DNA of 64,000 nt, taken from IMG/VR virus record IMGVR_UViG_3300035390_000009, positions 6,318 through 70,317 of that record; one strand, given 5' to 3'. Source of the DNA: a virus. How positions within the stretch are numbered: the first letter of the stretch is position 1; the number at the start of each line of letters is the position of its first letter. The translations under genes were made by a program, and so were the position numbers. This document shows positions 4,618 to 44,089 of the stretch, piece by piece. The notes under the pieces were generated by a model, which ran no database searches, was not told the origin of the DNA, and saw only the letters and a list, made by a program, of their open reading frames with translations.

Positions 4618-5529
4618 ATGAAAGTAGTTTATTGTGGACCTATAAAATATGTTGACAATTATGAAATCCAATGGTCTTTAACAAATAGATGTAATTATAA
4701 TTGTTCATATTGTGGCATTGTTACTAAAAATGAAAAATTTTCTTCATTAGAAAATATGAAAAAAAATTTAAATTTTTTATACTATTTAAATAATAAGAAA
4801 GAAGTTAAGTTAACTTTATTTGGTGGGGAACCAACCCATCATCCAGAATTTTTAAATCTACTAAAAATTATTGAATTACAAAATCTATCTATATTTACTA
4901 ATTTATCTAAAGATAAAAATTTTTTAAAAAAAGTTTTAGATATAAAACCAACCATAAGAATTAAAACATCCTTCCATAAAGAATATGCAAATCTCAATGA
5001 TTATATAGATAAGATTAAATTTATCGCTGAGCATGGAAATGAAATTTATTTATGTTTATTATGTAAAGATAAAAATAAAGAAACAATCGAAAATTATAAT
5101 AAAGTTAAAAATGCAACCAAAATGTATACTAATGTAATAGTTGATGTTATTAGTATTCATCCTAATATGAACGAAGAAGTTGTTAAATGGGGGGATGAAG
5201 TTAATAGTGATAGATTTAAAATAAAATATGATAATGGAAATGAAAATGAAGTTACTCTATCTAATATAATATATAATAATTTAAATTGCTTTGGACTATT
5301 TAAATGTTATTGTGGAATTAATAATCTTTTTATAGACTATAACTTTGATGTTCATTATTGTCAAACTTATAGAAATCATCATATAAAACCAATTTTTAAT
5401 CTTATAAATGATAACTATAAAGATTATGAAAATATATTTTCTAATGCAATGTTATGCAAACTTGAAAAGTGTTATTGTGAGGGTTTTATAAAAAAAGAAA
5501 AAGTTTTTAATAGAATAAAAAAATTATGA
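4618..5529 (+). CDS. Radical SAM enzyme with Cys-rich C-terminal (SPASM/twitch-like) region
   Basis: CNYNCSYC, FGGEP, C-terminal CYCG...YC...C...CYC. Confidence 0.9.
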   Translation: MKVVYCGPIKYVDNYEIQWSLTNRCNYNCSYCGIVTKNEKFSSLENMKKNLNFLYYLNNKKEVKLTLFGGEPTHHPEFLNLLKIIELQNLSIFTNLSKDKNFLKKVLDIKPTIRIKTSFHKEYANLNDYIDKIKFIAEHGNEIYLCLLCKDKNKETIENYNKVKNATKMYTNVIVDVISIHPNMNEEVVKWGDEVNSDRFKIKYDNGNENEVTLSNIIYNNLNCFGLFKCYCGINNLFIDYNFDVHYCQTYRNHHIKPIFNLINDNYKDYENIFSNAMLCKLEKCYCEGFIKKEKVFNRIKKL

Positions 5530-6101
5530 AAACATTAATGTTACATGATATAAAACCAATATATTTAAATTATGATTTAAAAAATTATGATTTGACTTTT
5601 GATGATGGTTTGTTTAGTCAGTTTTATTATTGGCCAATAATAAAAAAAATAAATACTAGTAAAATTTTTTTTATATGTTGTGATTTAATATCATTAGAGA
5701 ATAAAGTTAGACCCAATTTTAGAAATACTTTTATAGAATATCCAACATGTTTTCAATCTATGGATAAATACAAAAAGTTAAATATTAAATCAGATTATAT
5801 GACTATTGATGAATTAAAAATATTAAGTAAAGATGTAATGATAGGAGCTCATAGTTTTAGTCATAAAAAAATTAATATGAATGATAGTTTTTATAATATA
5901 AGTCAACAAATAAAACAAGATACTGAATTAATGTTAGAGTGGTTTAAAAAACATTTGAATCTTACCCCATTACATTACTGTTTTCCTTTTAATGAGAAAC
6001 ACTACTTACATGATTTATTATTACCATATTATGGGTTTAAACATTTTTACGGAAAAGAACGAATTGATATTGAATCTTTAGATATGGGAGAGTCTGAATG
6101 A
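5526..6101 (+). CDS. Polysaccharide deacetylase (NodB/CE4-like)
   Basis: LTFDDG, HSFSH metal-binding and YCFPF motifs. Confidence 0.85.
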   Translation: MKTLMLHDIKPIYLNYDLKNYDLTFDDGLFSQFYYWPIIKKINTSKIFFICCDLISLENKVRPNFRNTFIEYPTCFQSMDKYKKLNIKSDYMTIDELKILSKDVMIGAHSFSHKKINMNDSFYNISQQIKQDTELMLEWFKKHLNLTPLHYCFPFNEKHYLHDLLLPYYGFKHFYGKERIDIESLDMGESE

Positions 6102-7036
6102 AATTTATGAAAAAATATGATGTTTGTTTTATGCATCTTTTTACGTATTATATATGTGGAGATTTATTTCAAAGTTTTGAACATTTTTATTTATCAAGAA
6201 AAAATAAAATTAATGCCTGTTTATTTTTATCCATACATGTAGATAAAGAAAGAATAGAGCAATGCTTCAAACAAAAATATAATTTTGATGAATCAGAATT
6301 TGAGGAAATATTTTCCCATATTTATATTATTCCAATTAAAGAATTTATTAAAAAAAGAATGTATCAAACTTCTTTTAAAATAATATGTTTTCCAGGTATA
6401 CATCAATTATATCAATTATATACTGGAATTATTATACAACATCAAAAAGCTGTTGCCTTCGCTTGTATGCCTGTAGATGAAAGTAGGACAATATTTAATC
6501 TAGAAGTTTTTCAAGATTATAGAATTTATGGAGATACATTTTTAAACAATAAAACCTATAATTATGTAAGAAAATTATTACTAGATAAATATAAAAAACC
6601 AGAAAGTAATACAGAAGATACTGCTTTAATATATATTAAAAATTTTGTTAAAAATCATACTATTGAAAATACCATTAGGATGATGAAAGAATATAAATTT
6701 AAAAAATATTTAATATGTGTAGATAAACCTTTCTACCCTACTTTTTCAAAATTAAAAAATGCTCAAGTAGAAGTTATTACTTTACCAATTGATGATATCT
6801 TTTCTAAATTTTCAACTTATATATATTCTTTAATTAAAGATAATACTGATAAAGTTATTGATTGTTCTTCTAGATTTTTAATTGAATGTAAATATTTTAA
6901 TAAAGATATTATTTTTGATGGAGATATTAAAGATAAAGGATTATACTTCAGGAAACAAGATTTAGAAAATGATATAGAATGTTTAAATTTAAAAGATAAT
7001 GATTATTTTATTACTTATTTAAAGGATAATTTATGA
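6098..7036 (+). CDS. Glycosyltransferase-like protein, paralog 3
   Basis: N-terminal CGDLFQSFEHF similar to NGSIIDAFEYF of 3119; C-terminal DCSSRFLIECKYFNKDI. Confidence 0.55.
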   Translation: MKFMKKYDVCFMHLFTYYICGDLFQSFEHFYLSRKNKINACLFLSIHVDKERIEQCFKQKYNFDESEFEEIFSHIYIIPIKEFIKKRMYQTSFKIICFPGIHQLYQLYTGIIIQHQKAVAFACMPVDESRTIFNLEVFQDYRIYGDTFLNNKTYNYVRKLLLDKYKKPESNTEDTALIYIKNFVKNHTIENTIRMMKEYKFKKYLICVDKPFYPTFSKLKNAQVEVITLPIDDIFSKFSTYIYSLIKDNTDKVIDCSSRFLIECKYFNKDIIFDGDIKDKGLYFRKQDLENDIECLNLKDNDYFITYLKDNL

Positions 7037-11972: not shown

Positions 11973-12266
11973 ATGTCACACATTTCACACAAAAAAGCTC
12001 AGTTGTTTTTAGAAGGTTTACACAGCAATGTAACTAGTCAAACATTTGAAATGTTACAAGGTTTAATTGAGGTGCTCGAATCTAAAAACGACCCGGATCC
12101 CGCTGAAATTAGATTGGTAGATAGTATCTATAGTTTTGTAGAAAAATTGAATATTTTAGAAAGTAACATTTCTAATTATTCAAAAAAGAATAGTGAGGAT
12201 GCTGGATCAAAGTTAAATTCTTTGTATGAAAATATTTCTTACAATGGTAGTATATATAGGGATTAA
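11973..12266 (+). CDS. Hypothetical protein
   Basis: GGGAG SD, follows motif A. Confidence 0.75.
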   Translation: MSHISHKKAQLFLEGLHSNVTSQTFEMLQGLIEVLESKNDPDPAEIRLVDSIYSFVEKLNILESNISNYSKKNSEDAGSKLNSLYENISYNGSIYRD

Positions 12267-12269
12267 ATT

Positions 12270-13310
12270 ATGAAAACAATACATATAAAACAAAAAGGGT
12301 TTCTTGTACAAGTTGGAAATAAAGTTGTTAGAACTCCTTTGATTATTAAATGTGATCCAGAACAAGAAGCTTTGATATTACAAGAAATTGAAAAATATAA
12401 TATTGTATATTATGAAATTGATGAAGGTGTTGCAAAAATGCCTAAATTAATTGTACCAACAAAATCTACTGCATCATCAAAAAAGGTTTCAGGTACTTTA
12501 TTAAAAAAGTATATTTTAAATTATAAGAAAGATAACGAAGATCTAAAAGATCATAAACCGTTAAAACTTTCAACACCATTGTTAGAAAAAATTCAGGCAA
12601 CTACTAATGTGATAGATTATACCTTAGAAATGAGTGAAGTTAAAAACCAGGGAAGTCTTGGTTCATGTGTTGGATTTGCTGTTGTTTCAATGAAAGAATG
12701 GCAGGAACAACAAGAGCACCTAGAAGAATTAGAAGAAGGTAAATCTTATAAGAGAGCTAAAAAACATTACGACTTGTCTGAGCAATGGTTATATTATAAA
12801 TGTAAAGAAATAGATTATTGGCCAGGTGAAGAAGGAACCTCAATTAGATTTGCTATGAAAATATTAAATCAAGTTGGAGTCCCATGTGAAAAAGCATGGC
12901 CATATAATGCTAGTTATGTAGGAAAACCAAAACGATGGGCAAATTTAGTTTCTAAATGGGCCCTTGGTGGAGAGTATATTAGATTAGAAACTCCAGAAGA
13001 TATAATTAATTCTCTTGGGACTAATGGACCTTTACCAATTGGTGTTGGAGTATTTTTGGAAATGTTTTATACCACAAGTAATGGTATTGTTGCATATCCA
13101 AATGATCCTGATACTTGTTATGGAGGTCATGCTATTTGTTTAGTAGGATGGAATCCTAAAACCCAAATGTTTAAATTCAAAAATTCTTGGGGAATTAGTT
13201 GGGGAGAAAATGGTTATGGGTATTTACCATATAATTATATTAAAGATTTCTGCTGGGACTCATGGGAAATTAAAGACCTTAGTGTGACCAAGGAAATGTT
13301 AAAGGGGTAA
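12270..13310 (+). CDS. Papain-family (C1) cysteine protease with N-terminal extension
   Basis: NQGSLGSCVGFA (catalytic Cys), DLSEQ, GGHAI (His), KNSWG..WGENGYG (Asn). Confidence 0.92.
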   Translation: MKTIHIKQKGFLVQVGNKVVRTPLIIKCDPEQEALILQEIEKYNIVYYEIDEGVAKMPKLIVPTKSTASSKKVSGTLLKKYILNYKKDNEDLKDHKPLKLSTPLLEKIQATTNVIDYTLEMSEVKNQGSLGSCVGFAVVSMKEWQEQQEHLEELEEGKSYKRAKKHYDLSEQWLYYKCKEIDYWPGEEGTSIRFAMKILNQVGVPCEKAWPYNASYVGKPKRWANLVSKWALGGEYIRLETPEDIINSLGTNGPLPIGVGVFLEMFYTTSNGIVAYPNDPDTCYGGHAICLVGWNPKTQMFKFKNSWGISWGENGYGYLPYNYIKDFCWDSWEIKDLSVTKEMLKG

Positions 13311-13311
13311 A

Positions 13312-13704
13312 ATGATTATATGGTTAACTGGCAACAGTGGTTCAGGAAAAACTACTGTTGCTTATACTATAAAAAATATTTTTTTTAATTGGATAGTATT
13401 AGATGGTGATGAAATGAGACATTCTATTTCAAGAGATTTAGGATTATCAAAAAACGACCGAATAAAAAATAATATTATAATTGCTAGATTAGCTAATATT
13501 TTACATAAACAAGGTTTCAATATAATTATATCATCTATTGCTCCATTTCAATGCGGTAGAGAATTGGTAAATAAAATAATTAATTGTATTTGGATATATA
13601 TAGAAGGAGGAAAAACCGGATATAAATATCCATATGAAATACCTGATTGTATAAGATTTAATTCTATACAACAATTGCAAGATATTATTAAGGAGAATTT
13701 ATGA
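13312..13704 (+). CDS. cysC: Adenylylsulfate (APS) kinase-like, compact
   Basis: IWLTGNSGSGKTT P-loop, LDGDEMR..I..DLGLS..DR..N, ISSIAP..R; shorter than typical CysC. Confidence 0.8.
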   Translation: MIIWLTGNSGSGKTTVAYTIKNIFFNWIVLDGDEMRHSISRDLGLSKNDRIKNNIIIARLANILHKQGFNIIISSIAPFQCGRELVNKIINCIWIYIEGGKTGYKYPYEIPDCIRFNSIQQLQDIIKENL

Positions 13705-14192
13705 TGTTAAGAAACTTAAATGCTAAATTACCTATGGCACCAAATTTTAGATATAAAGAATTTATCAGATCTGCTACTGCATTAAGATTAGGCATCAGAA
13801 ATGTTCCCAGTGAATCAGAATGGCAGTCTATTGAAAGAGTAGCAGGTAATATTATACAACCGGTTAGAGATCAATTTGGTCCTATTAGAATTACATCTGG
13901 TTATCGAAGTGTTGAATTATGTTTAAAAGTTGGAAGCTCTCCAAGATCAAATCATGTTAGGGGAGAGGCAGTTGATTTTGAACCTGTTAGTTCAAAAATT
14001 AAATTGATAGATATTGTTAAATGGATACATATGAATTTAGAATATAGAGAATTAATAGCCGAATATTTTCCTGATGGATGGATTCATGTTGCTTATCGTT
14101 TACATAAAAATGTTAGAAAATTAAAACTAAAAGATTCTCAGCATAGTTACTCAGTTGTTTCTATGCCATATATTTTAAATATTTACGGGTAA
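13701..14192 (+). CDS. Peptidase M15 (zinc D-Ala-D-Ala peptidase-like), probable endolysin
   Basis: F...EF..S.TA, ITSGYRS, SNH..GEAVD, WIHV motifs. Confidence 0.85.
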   Translation: MMLRNLNAKLPMAPNFRYKEFIRSATALRLGIRNVPSESEWQSIERVAGNIIQPVRDQFGPIRITSGYRSVELCLKVGSSPRSNHVRGEAVDFEPVSSKIKLIDIVKWIHMNLEYRELIAEYFPDGWIHVAYRLHKNVRKLKLKDSQHSYSVVSMPYILNIYG

Positions 14193-14209
14193 ATCAAAGG
14201 ACTTATATC

Positions 14210-14632
14210 ATGGGAGAAATTCTAAGCAAAGAAGATGTATTCTTAATGATGAAATCTTATGAGAACAATGTTAAATATAATACTCAACTTTATGATAGAC
14301 AAGAAGTATTAGTTAAAGAACAATCGAAAGTAATTGATAATTTAAAGATTATTACAATAGAACAACAAAAAGTTAATTCACAATTAGAAATATTAATTAA
14401 AACTATAACAGATAACAACATACTGTGCAACTCAGGTGTTTCAGATATTAGTAAATCAATAATGGATAGTCATATTAATAATGTAAAAGAACACGGTAGA
14501 TTAAAATATCATTTGATAGGGATTTCTGGTGGTCTCATGGTAGTTATTATTGCTCTTATTACTGCCCTAGAAAAAATTTGGTCTAAAAGCGACATTATTG
14601 ATGCCGTCGCAAAATATATAGGGCTATCATAA
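14210..14632 (+). CDS. Coiled-coil protein with C-terminal TM helix (holin-like candidate)
   Basis: Hydrophobic LIGISGGLMVVIIALITAL near the C-terminus; directly after the M15 peptidase. Confidence 0.5.
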   Translation: MGEILSKEDVFLMMKSYENNVKYNTQLYDRQEVLVKEQSKVIDNLKIITIEQQKVNSQLEILIKTITDNNILCNSGVSDISKSIMDSHINNVKEHGRLKYHLIGISGGLMVVIIALITALEKIWSKSDIIDAVAKYIGLS

Positions 14633-14667
14633 CTATTAAGCGAAAATTTATTTATAGGAGTAATAAG

Positions 14668-15546
14668 ATGAGTAATGACCCTACTAAACAAATAATTTTT
14701 ATAATTGACGATGATAAAAATATAACAAAATTGTTAGATGAATATATTAATAAAAAACTATCTGATATTAATGTTTATACATTTAACACATGTGCTAGTA
14801 TGCTTGATCATCCATTAATTAAGGAATGTAGTTTATTTATTATTGATATTGAGTTAGATGCTAATGCAAAGGGTAATGAAGTCGCTAACGAATTATTTAA
14901 AAATAAATTTAATAAGCCTTATTTATTTATGTCTGGAAAAACATATGATTTTGAATGCTTTCAACAATATGATTATACATATGATTTTATTAAAAAACCT
15001 TTAGACTTAAATAAATTGATGAACAGAATATCAGTTTTATTAAAGGTTAGTGATACTTATAGATTGCATGAAATGGAAGAAAAAAAATTAAAATTTAGTT
15101 TGAAAGAAGTATTTGATTATACAAATATTTATATGGTTATTTTAGATGATAAAATGAATATTAAAACTTGTAGTTTTAAATTAGCTAAAGACCTAGAATA
15201 TAATAATTATAAAGATATTATTGGAATGTCATGGACTGAATTTATAAGAAAAGAAGATCTTAAAAATATAGAAATAGTTCACACTAATATAGTTCAGGAT
15301 ACAGAAAAATATCAAAAATCCTTGAGAGAACTTACCAGCACATTATTAACAAAATCAGGAAAAACAATTTCAGTTAAATGGTTTAATTCAAGAATAAAAA
15401 ATGGACATGTTTCAACATTTAGTATTGGCATTCCATATAATAGAAAAGTAACTGTTGACGATGAAGTTGATTCTATTAGAGCATATTGGAAACATGTTCT
15501 TGACAAAGATGAAACCACTTTAAGAGCTTTAAAAACTTTATCATAA
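14668..15546 (+). CDS. Response-regulator receiver domain fused to a PAS-like domain
   Basis: IFIIDDD, FIIDIEL (phospho-acceptor Asp), FMSG, DFIKKP; then MVILD...C...A..L.Y....DIIGMSWTEFI...D PAS pattern. Confidence 0.82.
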   Translation: MSNDPTKQIIFIIDDDKNITKLLDEYINKKLSDINVYTFNTCASMLDHPLIKECSLFIIDIELDANAKGNEVANELFKNKFNKPYLFMSGKTYDFECFQQYDYTYDFIKKPLDLNKLMNRISVLLKVSDTYRLHEMEEKKLKFSLKEVFDYTNIYMVILDDKMNIKTCSFKLAKDLEYNNYKDIIGMSWTEFIRKEDLKNIEIVHTNIVQDTEKYQKSLRELTSTLLTKSGKTISVKWFNSRIKNGHVSTFSIGIPYNRKVTVDDEVDSIRAYWKHVLDKDETTLRALKTLS

Positions 15547-15556
15547 AGGATAATAA

Positions 15557-16009
15557 ATGTTACGAGATATTATAAGACCTGGTACTCCTTTAATACAAAA
15601 TGTTGATGGGATTCTTATGTTTGAAGATAGTACCCGAAATAAGGTTTTAAGTGTTACTAGAGAAAATTTATCTTTTGGAATTGATCACAGAAACATATCT
15701 GGTAAAAGATGGTTAAAAACTTCGGGTAATGTTGTATCATCATTGGTAGGATATAAAATTCCGAGAGATGCAACAATAACCTCTATAACAATAGAAACAC
15801 AAAATATAGTAACTGATGCTAGATTCAATATAAGAAAAAATAATTCAATATCAAATATACATACTACTAATCTACTATTAGAATCTGAAATAATAGAAGA
15901 TAACTTAAACTATAATATAAACAAAGGTGATTATTTACAATTGTATCTATGGGTTGTATCTGGAAATGTTGATTATCCAGTAGTAACTGTAGAACTAGCT
16001 TGGAGATAA
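15557..16009 (+). CDS. Putative structural protein; stand-alone copy of the C-terminal domain of 16032
   Basis: DSTRNKVLSV..FG...ATITSI...GDYLQ...PVVTVELAWR matches DATRSKWLSV..FG...ATIVSI...GDYIQ...PMVVIEIAWR. Confidence 0.6.
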   Translation: MLRDIIRPGTPLIQNVDGILMFEDSTRNKVLSVTRENLSFGIDHRNISGKRWLKTSGNVVSSLVGYKIPRDATITSITIETQNIVTDARFNIRKNNSISNIHTTNLLLESEIIEDNLNYNINKGDYLQLYLWVVSGNVDYPVVTVELAWR

Positions 16010-16031: not shown

Positions 16032-17477
16032 ATGTCTGTAATGTGGGATGTAATAATTAATAATAATTCTGGGTCAATCGTAACAGTAGAAGATTTAGGA
16101 ATTGAACTTTCTAATGGAGATACTGTAAATTTTAGTCAACAATTTGATTTTGAAGAAATTGCAGGATCTGATGATCTTAGAAGTTTAGTATCTTCAGCAG
16201 ATTTGAGAGTACAAGATCCTTATGATCTCCCAAACTACTGTAGTCCAGCTAATGGAGTTTTATTTCTTAGATTAGATCATCTTTATAATCTAAAGAAAAA
16301 TCATTATACTATTGATGATTTAGAAACAGCTAATAGTGGAGTTGCAATTGACTGGACTAACATCACTAATGCACCTTCTTTTGGTTCCGTTAACTGGAGT
16401 GCTCCAATTATTGCAAGAGTAACAGCTATTGGTTCTGGTAAACCAGCTGCTCCTGTAATTGGTGATATGTGTGTTGATACAGATGATAGCCCAGATAAGC
16501 TATATAAATATAATGGGACTGCTTGGGTAGATCTTGGTGTAGTTCCAGATGCAGGAAGAGTAATTGATTTATCATCAGCAACTGAAAATGTTAAATATTT
16601 TACTGCTGCTGGCGAAACATGGACTGATAATGGCGAGGCACCTGATAATACTGCGGCAATGGTTAATGACGATGGTGATGGTAATCCAGCTCAGTATATT
16701 TATGAAACTACTGCTGATGTATGGATGAAAATTGCTGATGTTGATTTTGCATCACATTTTGATGGTGGTTCTAGTAAACATGATGCATCTGAAATTGATG
16801 TGGAAAATACTTATACTAATATACCTGGAACGCCAACTGATCTAGAAACAACTGTTGGAGCTATTGATACACTTTTAGGAACTATTAGCAGTGCTGTAGA
16901 TGATACTACTTTAGATGGTGCTTATGATCAAGGTGGTGCTGGTGCTGGTAGACTTATAAATGCTACTGATGGTACAGTTAAAATTGATAGAGGTGCTGCT
17001 ACATCTGGATCATTTGAAATTGTTCCAAAATCTAACTTGCCTACTACTGGTCTTTCTGATGGTCAGATTGATATTAAAGATGGTATTCTTTGTATCTATG
17101 ATGCAACTAGATCTAAATGGTTATCAGTCCAGAGACAATTCTTAGTATTTGGTAGAAAAGTTACTACTAGGAATCAGTATCTTGGTTTCTTTGGTTCAAG
17201 ACTTGTTTCTAATAGTTCTGGCCTTAGATTAGCAAGAGCAGCTACTATTGTTTCTATTGCTGGTCAATTAGATGCATCAGGAACATGTACTTTTAATATA
17301 AGAAGAAATGATGTTGCAACTAATGTAGAAAGTTTAACTGTTAGCGCATCTGTTGGTAATGAAGACATTTCTAAAAACACTGATCTAAACGGTGGTGATT
17401 ATATTCAATGTCAATTAGGAGCAACCGTAGCAGTAGAAGACCCAATGGTTGTTATAGAGATCGCCTGGAGATTATAA
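16032..17477 (+). CDS. Putative virion fibre/structural protein
   Basis: Acidic, Gly/Ala/Thr-rich; LYKYNGTAWVDLG fibre-type motif; N-domain shared with 17481 and C-domain shared with 15557. Confidence 0.6.
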   Translation: MSVMWDVIINNNSGSIVTVEDLGIELSNGDTVNFSQQFDFEEIAGSDDLRSLVSSADLRVQDPYDLPNYCSPANGVLFLRLDHLYNLKKNHYTIDDLETANSGVAIDWTNITNAPSFGSVNWSAPIIARVTAIGSGKPAAPVIGDMCVDTDDSPDKLYKYNGTAWVDLGVVPDAGRVIDLSSATENVKYFTAAGETWTDNGEAPDNTAAMVNDDGDGNPAQYIYETTADVWMKIADVDFASHFDGGSSKHDASEIDVENTYTNIPGTPTDLETTVGAIDTLLGTISSAVDDTTLDGAYDQGGAGAGRLINATDGTVKIDRGAATSGSFEIVPKSNLPTTGLSDGQIDIKDGILCIYDATRSKWLSVQRQFLVFGRKVTTRNQYLGFFGSRLVSNSSGLRLARAATIVSIAGQLDASGTCTFNIRRNDVATNVESLTVSASVGNEDISKNTDLNGGDYIQCQLGATVAVEDPMVVIEIAWRL

Positions 17478-22183: not shown

Positions 22184-23212
22184 ATGCTTAAACTAAATAC
22201 AGATGAGATAAGAAATCTTCAATTTGAGGTTTCTATACAGGGTATAAATTATGATGAATTGCAAGGTTCATTAAAATTTATAATTGAGGATGTAGAATAC
22301 GGAATCCCTGTAAAAATTCAAAGAGATTTAGTATCTGTAGAAGTTCCTCCGTTAGAAGAAATTGTTGCTAGAGGTATGAAAAATGGTGATATAGTTGAAT
22401 GTAAATTAGATATTTTTGGTAATGGATTTTATATTAACCCATGGGGTGGTCAGTTTGAATTATCAACTCCAGTTAAAATGGAAACCAAAAATTTTAATAT
22501 GAATAACAAACAGCCAGATAAAAAAATTGTTGCTGAATTAAAAGACCCAACTACAACATTATCTGAACCTATTGTTGAAGATTCTAAACCAAAAGAAATT
22601 TTAGATAAAGAAGCAATACTTGAAATGCTTTTTGAAAAATTAGAGGAACGAGGGTTTAAAACAGATGGTCATAAAATACCAGAAGCTATAAAAGAAACTA
22701 TTGAACAACCAAAAGAAAATAAATTATCCCGAAAAGAATTAGTTGAACAAAAAATAAGAAGTAAATTTAAAAGAGTTAATAGTCTTGTTAAAGAGGTCAA
22801 ATCATTAACAGAAGGGAAAAAGGTCATATCTAGTATTCAAACTCCTGCTACAGAAATAGTAAGAAACACTAATATTATAAATACTGATATGTCAAGTGTA
22901 ATGCAAAAAGTAGAAGAATTAAAAAGCAGAACTTCTTCAACTGTTGCACAACCAATATTACCAACTCAATTAAATAATCCAATTCAATCTGATCAATCAA
23001 TAGAACATGAAATAACTATTGACTATGAAGATCCTCACGTATTGATGGAATCAGTAGGAATGAAAAATCCTAAGATTCAACAAATCATGCTTGATAAAGC
23101 TATTGAGTTGGGTGGTGATGGAGATTCAGCAATATCACAAACATTAAAGAAATTATTAGGAATTGAAAAACCACAAGGTTATGAGGCATACCAAAATCAA
23201 AATTTTAATTAA
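22184..23212 (+). CDS. Hypothetical protein (N-terminal beta domain plus low-complexity/coiled region)
   Basis: Long ORF; ATG at 22184 preferred over the track TTG start. Confidence 0.75.
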   Translation: MLKLNTDEIRNLQFEVSIQGINYDELQGSLKFIIEDVEYGIPVKIQRDLVSVEVPPLEEIVARGMKNGDIVECKLDIFGNGFYINPWGGQFELSTPVKMETKNFNMNNKQPDKKIVAELKDPTTTLSEPIVEDSKPKEILDKEAILEMLFEKLEERGFKTDGHKIPEAIKETIEQPKENKLSRKELVEQKIRSKFKRVNSLVKEVKSLTEGKKVISSIQTPATEIVRNTNIINTDMSSVMQKVEELKSRTSSTVAQPILPTQLNNPIQSDQSIEHEITIDYEDPHVLMESVGMKNPKIQQIMLDKAIELGGDGDSAISQTLKKLLGIEKPQGYEAYQNQNFN

Positions 23213-23231
23213 TAAAAACAAGTGGGAGAAA

Positions 23232-23498
23232 ATGGCCAGATTAAAGTGTAAGATGTGTAAGGTTAAACGGAAATTGTGGGAGGATGGAAATTTCTTTGGG
23301 GTCAAATGTAAAAAACATTTTGTTCCATTAATTGTTTTAAAAGAACATAGAAATAAATTAACTATATCTGAAAAGAAAGAAGTATTAGAAATTATTAAAA
23401 CTAGATATAAGGGTTTATATATAGATGATACTATATCTGATTCTGACAATCATTGGCATATTCATCTGAGTAAAAAAAATAAATTATCAATGTTATAG
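23232..23498 (+). CDS. Small zinc-binding HIT-like protein
   Basis: CKMC...CKKH and C-terminal HWHIH (HxHxH); GGGAG SD before ATG 23232. Confidence 0.55.
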   Translation: MARLKCKMCKVKRKLWEDGNFFGVKCKKHFVPLIVLKEHRNKLTISEKKEVLEIIKTRYKGLYIDDTISDSDNHWHIHLSKKNKLSML

Positions 23499-42988: not shown

Positions 42989-44089
42989 ATGAAAGCTTTT
43001 TGGATTTGGTTATTAGGAATATTTGGAATGGCTCCGGTTAAAATACCAGAGGAAATATTGGATGATACTACTGCTCATGTTGAACCAGATAATTATGTTC
43101 CAGGAGAGATTATAGATGATTATGTTCCAGAAGAATACCCTGATGTTATAATTCCACCCGGTGATTCAGATGATCTCTTTGATGATGATACTTTAATGGA
43201 TGAACTTGAAGATATAGATGAACCATATGTTGATCCAGATCAAAGGGCACCTGGAAAATTTGCAGTTCTAATTGGTATTAATAAATATGATCCATCTCTT
43301 AATTCTAATCTGAATGGTTGTGTTAATGATGTTGAAGGTATGTATGATATACTAGTAAATACATATGGGTTTCTTCCTGATAATATTAGAGTGTTAACTG
43401 ATTATAGAGCAACACAGGAGATGATGCTTGAAAGGATTAGTTGGTTATTGGATCATGATGTTTATGGTGATGAATTAGTCTTACACTACTCTGGTCATGG
43501 TTCACAAATAAGAGATAGAGATGGGGATGAACTGAATGATTACTTAGATGAAATATTATGCCCAACTGATTTAGATTGGGATGATCCATTAACTGATGAT
43601 GATATTAAATGGATATTTAATATGAAAGAGGATGGAGTATTCCTTACATTCATATGTGATTCATGTCATAGTGGATCAATAACTAAAACCATTCAAAATA
43701 ATCCAGAAGGTATAGAGTTTGCACCTCTTGAATACCCAAGATTTATTAGTCCTCCACTTGATATTAAAATAAGAGAAGGATCTAATTCTATTGCTAGTCA
43801 TAAATTTGGTGGATTAAATATAAATGAAAAGGAATTGTTTGAACAACAACATGTGTTATTGTCAGGATGCAGAGATAACCAAACATCTGCTGATGCTTAC
43901 ATTGATGGTAAGTGGCAAGGAGCAATGACTTCTAGTTTAATTTCTGCTATTAGAAAGAATCCTAATAGAGATTGGAATTCTATACATGCTGATGTTATTT
44001 CAATATTGAATGTAGGTGGGTATGCTCAGAAGCCTCAATTGAGTGGAGAGGATTCATTGATAAAAGGTCGTAACATATTTGGGTCATGA
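42989..44089 (+). CDS. Metacaspase (peptidase C14) with hydrophobic N-terminus and acidic linker
   Basis: AVLIGINKY, LNGCVND, HYSGHG (His), DSCHSG (Cys), LLSGCRDNQTSAD, QKPQL. Confidence 0.92.
   Translation: MKAFWIWLLGIFGMAPVKIPEEILDDTTAHVEPDNYVPGEIIDDYVPEEYPDVIIPPGDSDDLFDDDTLMDELEDIDEPYVDPDQRAPGKFAVLIGINKYDPSLNSNLNGCVNDVEGMYDILVNTYGFLPDNIRVLTDYRATQEMMLERISWLLDHDVYGDELVLHYSGHGSQIRDRDGDELNDYLDEILCPTDLDWDDPLTDDDIKWIFNMKEDGVFLTFICDSCHSGSITKTIQNNPEGIEFAPLEYPRFISPPLDIKIREGSNSIASHKFGGLNINEKELFEQQHVLLSGCRDNQTSADAYIDGKWQGAMTSSLISAIRKNPNRDWNSIHADVISILNVGGYAQKPQLSGEDSLIKGRNIFGS

Follow-up and report, generated by a model that had tools for sequence, protein, structure and literature searches.

A phage-encoded receiver-PAS protein and its tail-anchored coiled-coil partner form a recurrent two-gene module, with a possible role in lysis, in uncultured large phages

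The timing of lysis sets the burst size and the fitness of a phage. To our knowledge, the signal-responsive lysis controls that are well understood are limited to the lysis inhibition of T-even phages and a few quorum-sensing switches that operate at the level of transcription. Here we consider a gene pair that may belong in this company. It lies in a 64,000-nucleotide stretch of viral DNA (positions 6,318 to 70,317 of IMG/VR virus record IMGVR_UViG_3300035390_000009; hereafter the window), which is part of a 79-kb record estimated by CheckV to be about 49% complete. The pair encodes a small coiled-coil protein with a transmembrane (TM) segment, which we call CC-TM, and, immediately downstream, an orphan response regulator in which a receiver (REC) domain is joined to a PAS domain and a short C-terminal tail.

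Several described systems bear on such a locus. In phage T4, lysis inhibition involves the holin T and the periplasmic antiholin RI, which form an RI/T complex (PMC11413866), together with RIII, a cytoplasmic antiholin (PMC8385771); lysis inhibition in phage ICP1 involves TeaA and ArrA (PMC7182436). In PBSX of Bacillus subtilis, vesicle production reportedly depends on all three of xhlA, xhlB and xlyA, in line with earlier findings on cell lysis, and XhlA is a membrane protein needed together with the holin XhlB and the lysin (PMC5589764). Vibriophage VP882 encodes VqmA-Phi, a PAS-HTH quorum-sensing receptor that triggers lysis (PMC10426928). Receiver-fold domains have also been reported from jumbo phages, as the divergent cRec domains, which are never found in histidine-kinase signalling and are tied to NAD+/cyclic-nucleotide and RNA-repair systems (PMC7824862).

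Our central finding is that the receiver-PAS protein of the window is one half of a conserved pair. We compared the gene neighbourhoods of 9 viral and 25 metagenomic loci with that of the window, giving 35 loci in 23 lineages at 80% identity (cited below by L numbers where they have to be told apart). A hidden Markov model of the partner placed a CC-TM homolog directly before the PAS-tail gene in all 34 informative loci, the single uninformative locus beginning just 158 nucleotides (nt) before the PAS gene. The pairing is seen with every type of N-terminal head and down to 27-31% identity, and both families are drawn from the same source contigs in the database lists; in five loci one extra gene of ~100 aa stands between the two. 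Among close relatives the partner is 79-86% identical and the sensor 61-65%. Judged by gene order, the real unit is a two-gene module, with CC-TM as the obligate partner of the PAS-tail protein.

The sensor half, 292 aa long and encoded on the + strand at 14668..15546, is identified as an orphan response regulator by Pfam, profile comparison, AlphaFold2 (AF2) and Foldseek. Its receiver domain (residues 10-121; 14695..15030, + strand), delimited by PF00072 and a residue tally, scores 36.8 bits with PF00072 against a cut-off of 30.2, and a profile built from 80 relatives matches the receiver of B. subtilis PhoP in the PDB at 5.1e-18. The set of functional residues is complete, comprising D14/D15, the phospho-acceptor D60, S89, the switch residue F107 and K110-P111, and these catalytic and switch positions are invariant in a 13-sequence alignment of the window's clade. 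The AF2 model of the whole protein (predicted local distance difference test, pLDDT, 89.9) consists of a receiver, a 38-residue helix, a PAS fold and two terminal helices. The receiver adopts the (beta-alpha)5 fold, its strands and helices at pLDDT >90, and the linker helix (residues 114-151; 15007..15120, + strand) extends receiver alpha-5 into the PAS domain. Foldseek aligned the receiver with PhoP, VicR, CpxR and BfmR at TM-scores of 0.8-0.85 (normalised to the target) and returned a probability of 1.0 both for receiver domains and for PAS domains (FixL, HIF2a/ARNT, SO_1695 and an HTR-like PAS); the best full-length match was DgcR, itself a REC-helix-output protein.

AF2 and Foldseek place the PAS domain at about residues 152-262 (15121..15453, + strand), where a five-stranded antiparallel sheet with flanking helices is modelled over residues 155-256 at pLDDT 89-98. 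The window protein alone has no Pfam PAS match at E<=0.1; among the 80 family members, however, Pfam PAS models are matched repeatedly (PAS_9 in 33, PAS_4 in 17, PAS in 16 and PAS_3 in 13), the weak PDB profile matches of the region are to PAS proteins in every case, and its structural neighbours in the Atlas are PAS proteins exclusively. A preliminary description of this DNA had proposed an M15 peptidase, a coiled-coil/TM protein and a full receiver fused to a PAS-like domain with a short tail lacking DNA-binding output; Pfam, PHROG, AF2 and Foldseek recovered all of these where it had placed them, and domain search and structure prediction together support both the receiver and the PAS fold. 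The LOV cysteine motif is absent from the PAS domain. A histidine on the F-alpha helix, H205, is near-invariant in the window's clade and present in ~55% of the family as a whole; as it is not conserved family-wide, heme binding through H205 is a possible lead only.

The remainder of the protein is the tail IDSIRAYWKHVLDKDETTLRALK (15454..15543, + strand), which by AF2 and conservation forms two short helices (267-280 and 282-291, pLDDT ~60) and no DNA-binding fold, and which is presumably an output or docking element. Neither a DNA-binding domain nor an enzymatic output was found in the 292-aa protein, and with no DNA-binding output its action must proceed through protein-protein contacts.

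An exhaustive HMMER search, reduced to representative clusters at 50% identity, returned 270 clusters at E<=1e-3, 121 of them at E<=1e-10. What all members have in common is residues 135-290, that is, the PAS domain and the tail. This core occurs in four forms: standing alone in proteins of 150-200 aa, which retain the tail; behind a receiver, in proteins of ~290-300 aa; behind an extra PAS domain, as in L010; and in longer proteins of 400-570 aa. Within it W238 and G254 are invariant, and E221, F239, R271 and D281 near-invariant (the last two assessed over 80 sequences). Receivers fare differently: the full catalytic set is kept in 50 of 64 receiver-bearing representatives, whereas in the remaining 14 the acidic pair, the Ser/Thr or the Lys is missing, and PF00072 no longer picks up these heads. 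Since the PAS-tail unit is the only part common to all forms, it is the constant element, the receiver being one input among several that can replace one another; the N-terminal head of this family thus appears to be exchangeable, being an intact receiver, a degenerate receiver, an extra PAS domain or nothing at all.

As to its range, tblastn with the protein and with a stand-alone member found no true homologs in 50,697 cultured-phage records, only generic receiver matches with E above 1e-4, and a pattern scan covering 185,579 GTDB species, each represented by one genome, found no relative. The family therefore seems to be confined to uncultured phages and to be common among large ones. The arrangement had at first been thought unusual for a phage late region, which is true of the cultured phages and not of the uncultured large ones, where the 270 clusters make it commonplace.

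The source of phosphate for D60 must be considered alongside the exchangeable head. Neither HATPase_c nor HisKA domains occur in the 79-kb record, so the earlier remark that the window has no histidine kinase extends to the entire record; in the 207-kb and 269-kb relatives HATPase_c is present only in GyrB/topoisomerase II subunits, and no cognate histidine kinase or phosphodonor for the receiver was found in the records examined. An orphan receiver of this kind could act as a phosphate sink, as had been suggested, or as a decoy, draining or titrating a host histidine kinase so as to shut down a two-component pathway of the infected cell while the PAS-tail unit served for dimerisation or localisation only. 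The catalytic quintet, intact and conserved throughout the window's clade, would suit that role, as would the lack of a phage kinase and of any enzymatic or DNA-binding output. Yet the part on which a sink depends is the dispensable part of the family, missing from many members and degenerate in 14 of 64, while the PAS-tail unit and CC-TM, neither of which a sink needs, are always kept; for this reason we consider a sink improbable.

The partner, CC-TM, is a 140-aa protein encoded on the + strand at 14210..14632. AF2, run with a 49-sequence alignment, models it as one unbroken helix (residues 7-136, pLDDT 90). Its sole hydrophobic segment, ~102-120, lies near the C-terminus, preceded by K/R/H residues and followed by a tail of 20 aa. 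The position of this segment marks CC-TM as tail-anchored, with ~100 cytoplasmic residues forming a coiled-coil stalk, and the K/R/H residues before the anchor indicate an N-in topology. Across the family, which comprises 106 database clusters and has a length of ~140-170 aa, the layout is an N-terminal motif (LSKxDLxxLMxSYxNN), a variable coiled-coil stalk, a KEHxxL motif and the C-terminal TM segment; D9 and Y17 are invariant within the strongly conserved N-terminal segment. The window's CC-TM belongs to no Pfam or PHROG family and no Pfam domain is found in any of the 106 clusters, the homolog in L008 giving weak matches only, to PHROGs of unknown function or to generic coiled-coil families.

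We compared CC-TM with the membrane proteins that a lysis cassette would be expected to contain. It resembles a holin in being a small membrane protein encoded beside an endolysin gene (140 aa, one TM segment, abutting M15 or Amidase_3 in two clades), and on the + strand between 9.5 and 25 kb no other credible membrane protein is encoded near the soluble M15 peptidase described below. It was rejected as a described holin, having no holin family match and a C-terminal TM segment. The "endolysin/holin-like pair" of the preliminary description is accordingly half upheld: the M15 protein is of endolysin type, but CC-TM is no recognisable holin. XhlA carries its coiled coil at the N-terminus and its TM segment at the C-terminus; its model, PF10779, did not match the partner gene in any of five records, even at E<=10, and the identification was dropped. 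The lysis cassette of phage WBeta holds only a holin and PlyG, and no XhlA. An i-spanin of the Rz type was likewise set aside because the anchor of CC-TM is at the wrong end, C-terminal rather than N-terminal; no o-spanin lipoprotein gene was found adjacent to it or embedded among the listed open reading frames (ORFs).

The gene upstream of CC-TM (13701..14192, + strand; PF08291, phrog_894) encodes a single-domain peptidoglycan hydrolase of 163 aa, of the M15 (VanY/L-Ala-D-Glu peptidase) type. It matches PF08291 (Peptidase_M15_3) at 1.1e-13 and the endolysin family phrog_894 at 4.9e-27, its translation carries the zinc-ligand motifs SNHVRGEAVD and WIHVAY as well as an SGYR motif, and it has neither signal peptide nor TM segment, which makes it soluble. 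We take 13701-14192 to encode an intact M15 peptidase that is likely the endolysin of this phage. The spacers across M15, CC-TM, the REC-PAS gene and the gene that follows are tight (18, 36 and 11 nt), Shine-Dalgarno sequences precede both the CC-TM and the REC-PAS gene, and no terminator-like site was found between M15 and the fibre genes. A scan for sigma-70 promoters was uninformative because the DNA is AT-rich (89 matches against 88.8 expected).

This proximity to a lysin recurs. In the window's clade the M15 gene ends 13-24 nt before the CC-TM gene in 7 of 8 informative lineages, the ninth, L015, being cut at a contig end and left out of the count. In the PAS-PAS clade the lysin is an Amidase_3 (PF01520 1.9e-22; phrog_435), whose gene abuts or overlaps that of CC-TM in L032, L033 and L037 and is parted from it in L010 and L034-36 only by an inserted HNH-type gene. 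A third type, a GH19-type lysin (phrog_181, ~1e-79), is encoded upstream of the partner gene at a distance of 2.8 kb in L003 and 4.6 kb in L024, with spanin-like and holin-like small membrane genes between it and the module. Three unrelated lysin families hence recur near the same pair, and by a rough estimate, which is not a computed statistic, a lysin would be an immediate neighbour by chance about once in 250 per clade, given a genome of ~250 genes.

Two of these neighbourhoods have features of their own. The inserted gene, which encodes 452 aa (L010:5778-7136; also in L034-L036, absent from L032, L033 and L037), carries HNH and GIDTGYGTIG (RuvC-like) motifs and looks like a mobile IscB-like or homing-endonuclease gene, a domain call made by eye. 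Between its GH19 lysin and the module, L003 carries a row of six small genes for membrane proteins (4736-6951). One product is a coiled-coil protein with an N-terminal TM segment (i-spanin-like), and another combines a signal peptide with a coiled coil and a C-terminal TM segment; the L003 lysis cassette is unusually elaborate. In two other places a lysin was sought and none was credited. A 196-aa protein downstream of the module in L008 and L009, which by eye suggested a permuted papain amidase, found no support in Pfam, PHROG, PDB or BLAST searches and was not counted as a lysin, and the 279-aa upstream gene of L020 was looked up and yielded no identification.

Taken together, these data lead us to suggest, tentatively, that the REC-PAS protein may well be a cytoplasmic sensor adaptor that acts on a tail-anchored, lysis-associated membrane protein and is fed by host phosphorylation. 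The 292-aa protein would serve as the cytoplasmic sensor in a two-protein module specific to phages, in which the PAS domain and the two-helix tail form the constant working part and the head is a plug-in input. As no phage kinase was found, the phosphate on D60 would come from a histidine kinase of the host or from acetyl phosphate, a source that we infer. The signal would pass along the long linker helix, with a ligand in the PAS pocket as a possible second input, and phosphorylation or ligand would alter the grip of the PAS-tail unit on the cytoplasmic stalk of CC-TM. Physical contact between the two proteins is thus part of the proposal, the candidate surfaces being the conserved, low-confidence terminal helices on one side and the conserved N-terminal segment of the partner on the other.

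From gene context, the event under control is most likely the membrane step of lysis. CC-TM would close the lysis cassette and share a transcript with the soluble M15 enzyme, which can get to the wall only through a membrane lesion, and the module would tune when, or whether, that step fires, working as an antiholin-like or holin-accessory cytoplasmic regulator that reads the physiological state of the host. An effect on lysis or its timing is accordingly what we would predict. Whether the pair amounts to an undescribed and widespread class of lysis switch, in which PAS-tail adaptors with plug-in heads grip the stalk of a tail-anchored lysis protein, is a bolder claim that we regard as possible but doubtful.

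A number of observations weigh against a role in lysis. The expectation that homologs would be linked to lysis genes is borne out by the three lysin families, but 9 of the 23 lineages (L004, L021-23, L028, L005, L007, L009 and L020) have no recognisable lysin within 6 kb, and the conserved partner is CC-TM, not a lysin; when 136 neighbouring ORFs of ten other loci were scanned, the GH19 enzyme of L024 was the sole lysin. The neighbours in lysin-free lineages are tail fibres, chaperones, clamp-loader-like, PhoH and head-closure genes, so that the linkage may stem from a common location at the margin of the late region and not from a common function. CC-TM, as judged by its sequence, matches no holin, spanin or XhlA model, and none of the established holin classes combines a large cytoplasmic N-terminus with an anchor at the C-terminus. 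The amidase of the PAS-PAS clade is preceded by a more conventional holin candidate with two TM segments, and in the window any of the small genes with one or two TM segments at 25-38 kb could be the true holin or spanins. On the side of the input, the phage records are 10-74% complete, so a kinase elsewhere in these genomes is possible. Endolysin linkage, on the gene orders compared, appears to be recurrent and not universal.

Several of these observations would also fit a membrane-tethered signalling module with some other output, the lysin neighbours being coincidental and the module serving superinfection exclusion, envelope remodelling, assembly of virions or fibres at the membrane, or host takeover. 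Such a module would account for the fact that the pair itself is the sole invariant association (with the helical protein p97 joining it in several clades), for the nine lineages whose neighbours are fibres, chaperones, clamp-loader-like genes and PhoH instead of lysins, for the fibre genes 3' of the module in the window's clade, L005, L007 and L010, and for the lack of a holin-family signal in CC-TM. It accounts poorly for same-strand abutment to two unrelated lysin families in two deeply separated clades, with a third within 5 kb, which is hard to obtain by chance. We view an output other than lysis as a possibility to be taken seriously, if an unlikely one.

The surroundings of the module in the window bear on a further reading. 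Every gene from 410 to 24792 is on the + strand, in the order radical-SAM/tailoring block, p97, C1 papain-like peptidase, APS-kinase-like protein, M15, CC-TM, REC-PAS, and fibre-like proteins of 150, 481 and 692 aa. The 150-aa protein (15557..16009, + strand) is encoded directly 3' of the REC-PAS gene and begins the fibre block, an order that is conserved in the window's clade; the 481-aa fibre-like protein follows (16032-17477, + strand), and the 692-aa one carries collagen and BclA_C domains. With these genes immediately downstream, one could take the REC-PAS protein for a structural or assembly component of a fibre or baseplate block that has REC-like and PAS-like folds and takes no part in signalling. 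We hold this to be more improbable even than a sink, because the phospho-chemistry residues are all under selection in the clade and the obligate partner is a membrane protein; in addition, the PAS sequence homology is genuine and fibre genes are not conserved beside the pair in other clades. As read in the translations, the 150-aa and 481-aa proteins have a C-terminal domain in common (...VVTVELAWR and ...VVIEIAWRL, respectively), which appears again in two fibre-like proteins of L005 and L006.

Three other small genes travel with the module. The first encodes p97, a 97-aa all-helical protein with a DPDP motif (11973..12266, + strand) that belongs to no Pfam or PHROG family and is a frequent companion upstream. 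Helical proteins of this kind, 97-103 aa long with a DPDPxE motif, accompany the module in 13 loci, upstream of CC-TM (window 11973-12266; L003:7152-7463; L004:6755-7063; L007:7017-7313; and 9 further loci). In the degenerate-receiver clade p97 directly adjoins CC-TM, and in the window's clade the two are separated by inserted genes for the C1 peptidase, the kinase and M15. The second is the extra conserved gene of ~100-116 aa found in five lineages of the degenerate-receiver clade (L004:7647-7967, L021:4896-5186, L022:7653-7955, L024:7390-7740 and L028:4661-4969). The third encodes a Cys-rich, zinc-ribbon-like protein of 88-111 aa (CxFCNPKK...CxxCQG) that in the degenerate-receiver clade lies immediately or shortly 3' of the PAS-tail gene (L003:8909-9175; L004:9982-10248; others). 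In the window its counterpart (23163-23498) is displaced by ~7.6 kb by the fibre block, from which we conclude that the fibre genes have been inserted into a syntenic core that is older.

Wedged between p97 and M15 on the + strand of the window (12270-13704) are the genes for the 346-aa C1 papain-family peptidase and for a truncated, 130-aa APS-kinase-like P-loop protein; the C1 peptidase is kept at the same position across the window's clade (L002, L013, L014, L017 and L018). Farther along, mostly on the - strand between 25087 and 38494, come ~19 small genes of 45-146 aa with one or two predicted TM segments each, and a caspase-family Peptidase_C14 protein (2.2e-29) is encoded at 42989-44089, downstream of a HAD-like gene. 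The G+C content of the window is 19-34%, and no tRNAs were found in it. Marker proteins searched as a guide to the host matched only distant sequences of mixed origin.

In the literature we found no description of the family, of its membrane partner, or of a PAS or receiver input to phage lysis proteins; what is known already comprises bacterial REC-PAS architectures, orphan receivers, and phage PAS sensors that act on transcription. If the proposal is correct, large environmental phages would set the time of burst from the two-component, redox or metabolic state of the host, through a direct post-translational route that leads from host physiology to lysis or to another membrane event. Host two-component kinases would then be exploitable by phage-encoded orphan receivers, and the module would be a cytoplasmic equivalent, gated by signals, of T4 lysis inhibition. 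It is small (~430 aa in total) and self-contained. A family of 270 clusters that is limited to uncultured phages also marks a gap in the resources used for phage annotation.

With the lysis inhibition of T4 and ICP1 the module would share a concept, namely that a phage regulator acting on a membrane lysis protein shifts the time of lysis in response to a signal, and T4 RIII is cytoplasmic as well. In T4, however, the signal is superinfection and is sensed in the periplasm, whereas the inputs here would be a phospho-receiver, a PAS domain or both; the topology of holin T is opposite to that of CC-TM, and the likeness is conceptual, with no relation in sequence or fold expected. XhlA of PBSX and CC-TM are both small non-holin membrane proteins encoded in a lysis cassette beside a lysin, but CC-TM is the larger (~140-170 aa against the 67 positions of the XhlA model), and XhlA has no dedicated sensor protein.

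VqmA-Phi offers the parallel of a phage-encoded PAS sensor that couples a signal from the host or its population to the decision to lyse, as the REC-PAS protein may do. VqmA-Phi is, however, a DNA-binding transcription factor that acts on a lysis-lysogeny switch, whereas the REC-PAS protein has no DNA-binding domain, is paired with a membrane protein and is encoded in the late region. The cRec domains are also receiver folds of large phages; the receiver described here differs from them in being a conventional PF00072 domain that scores above the gathering threshold, and in its genetic context. The closest resemblance in architecture is to bacterial REC-PAS proteins and orphan receivers of the CheY/PhoP type, which have in common with the phage protein a canonical (beta-alpha)5 receiver, an alpha-5 that runs on into a signalling helix, a PAS domain and no DNA-binding output. 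The phage protein is set apart from these by being phage-encoded and without a cognate kinase, by a two-helix tail specific to the family, by a receiver that in other members is dead, missing or replaced by a PAS domain, and by the tail-anchored partner that always accompanies it.

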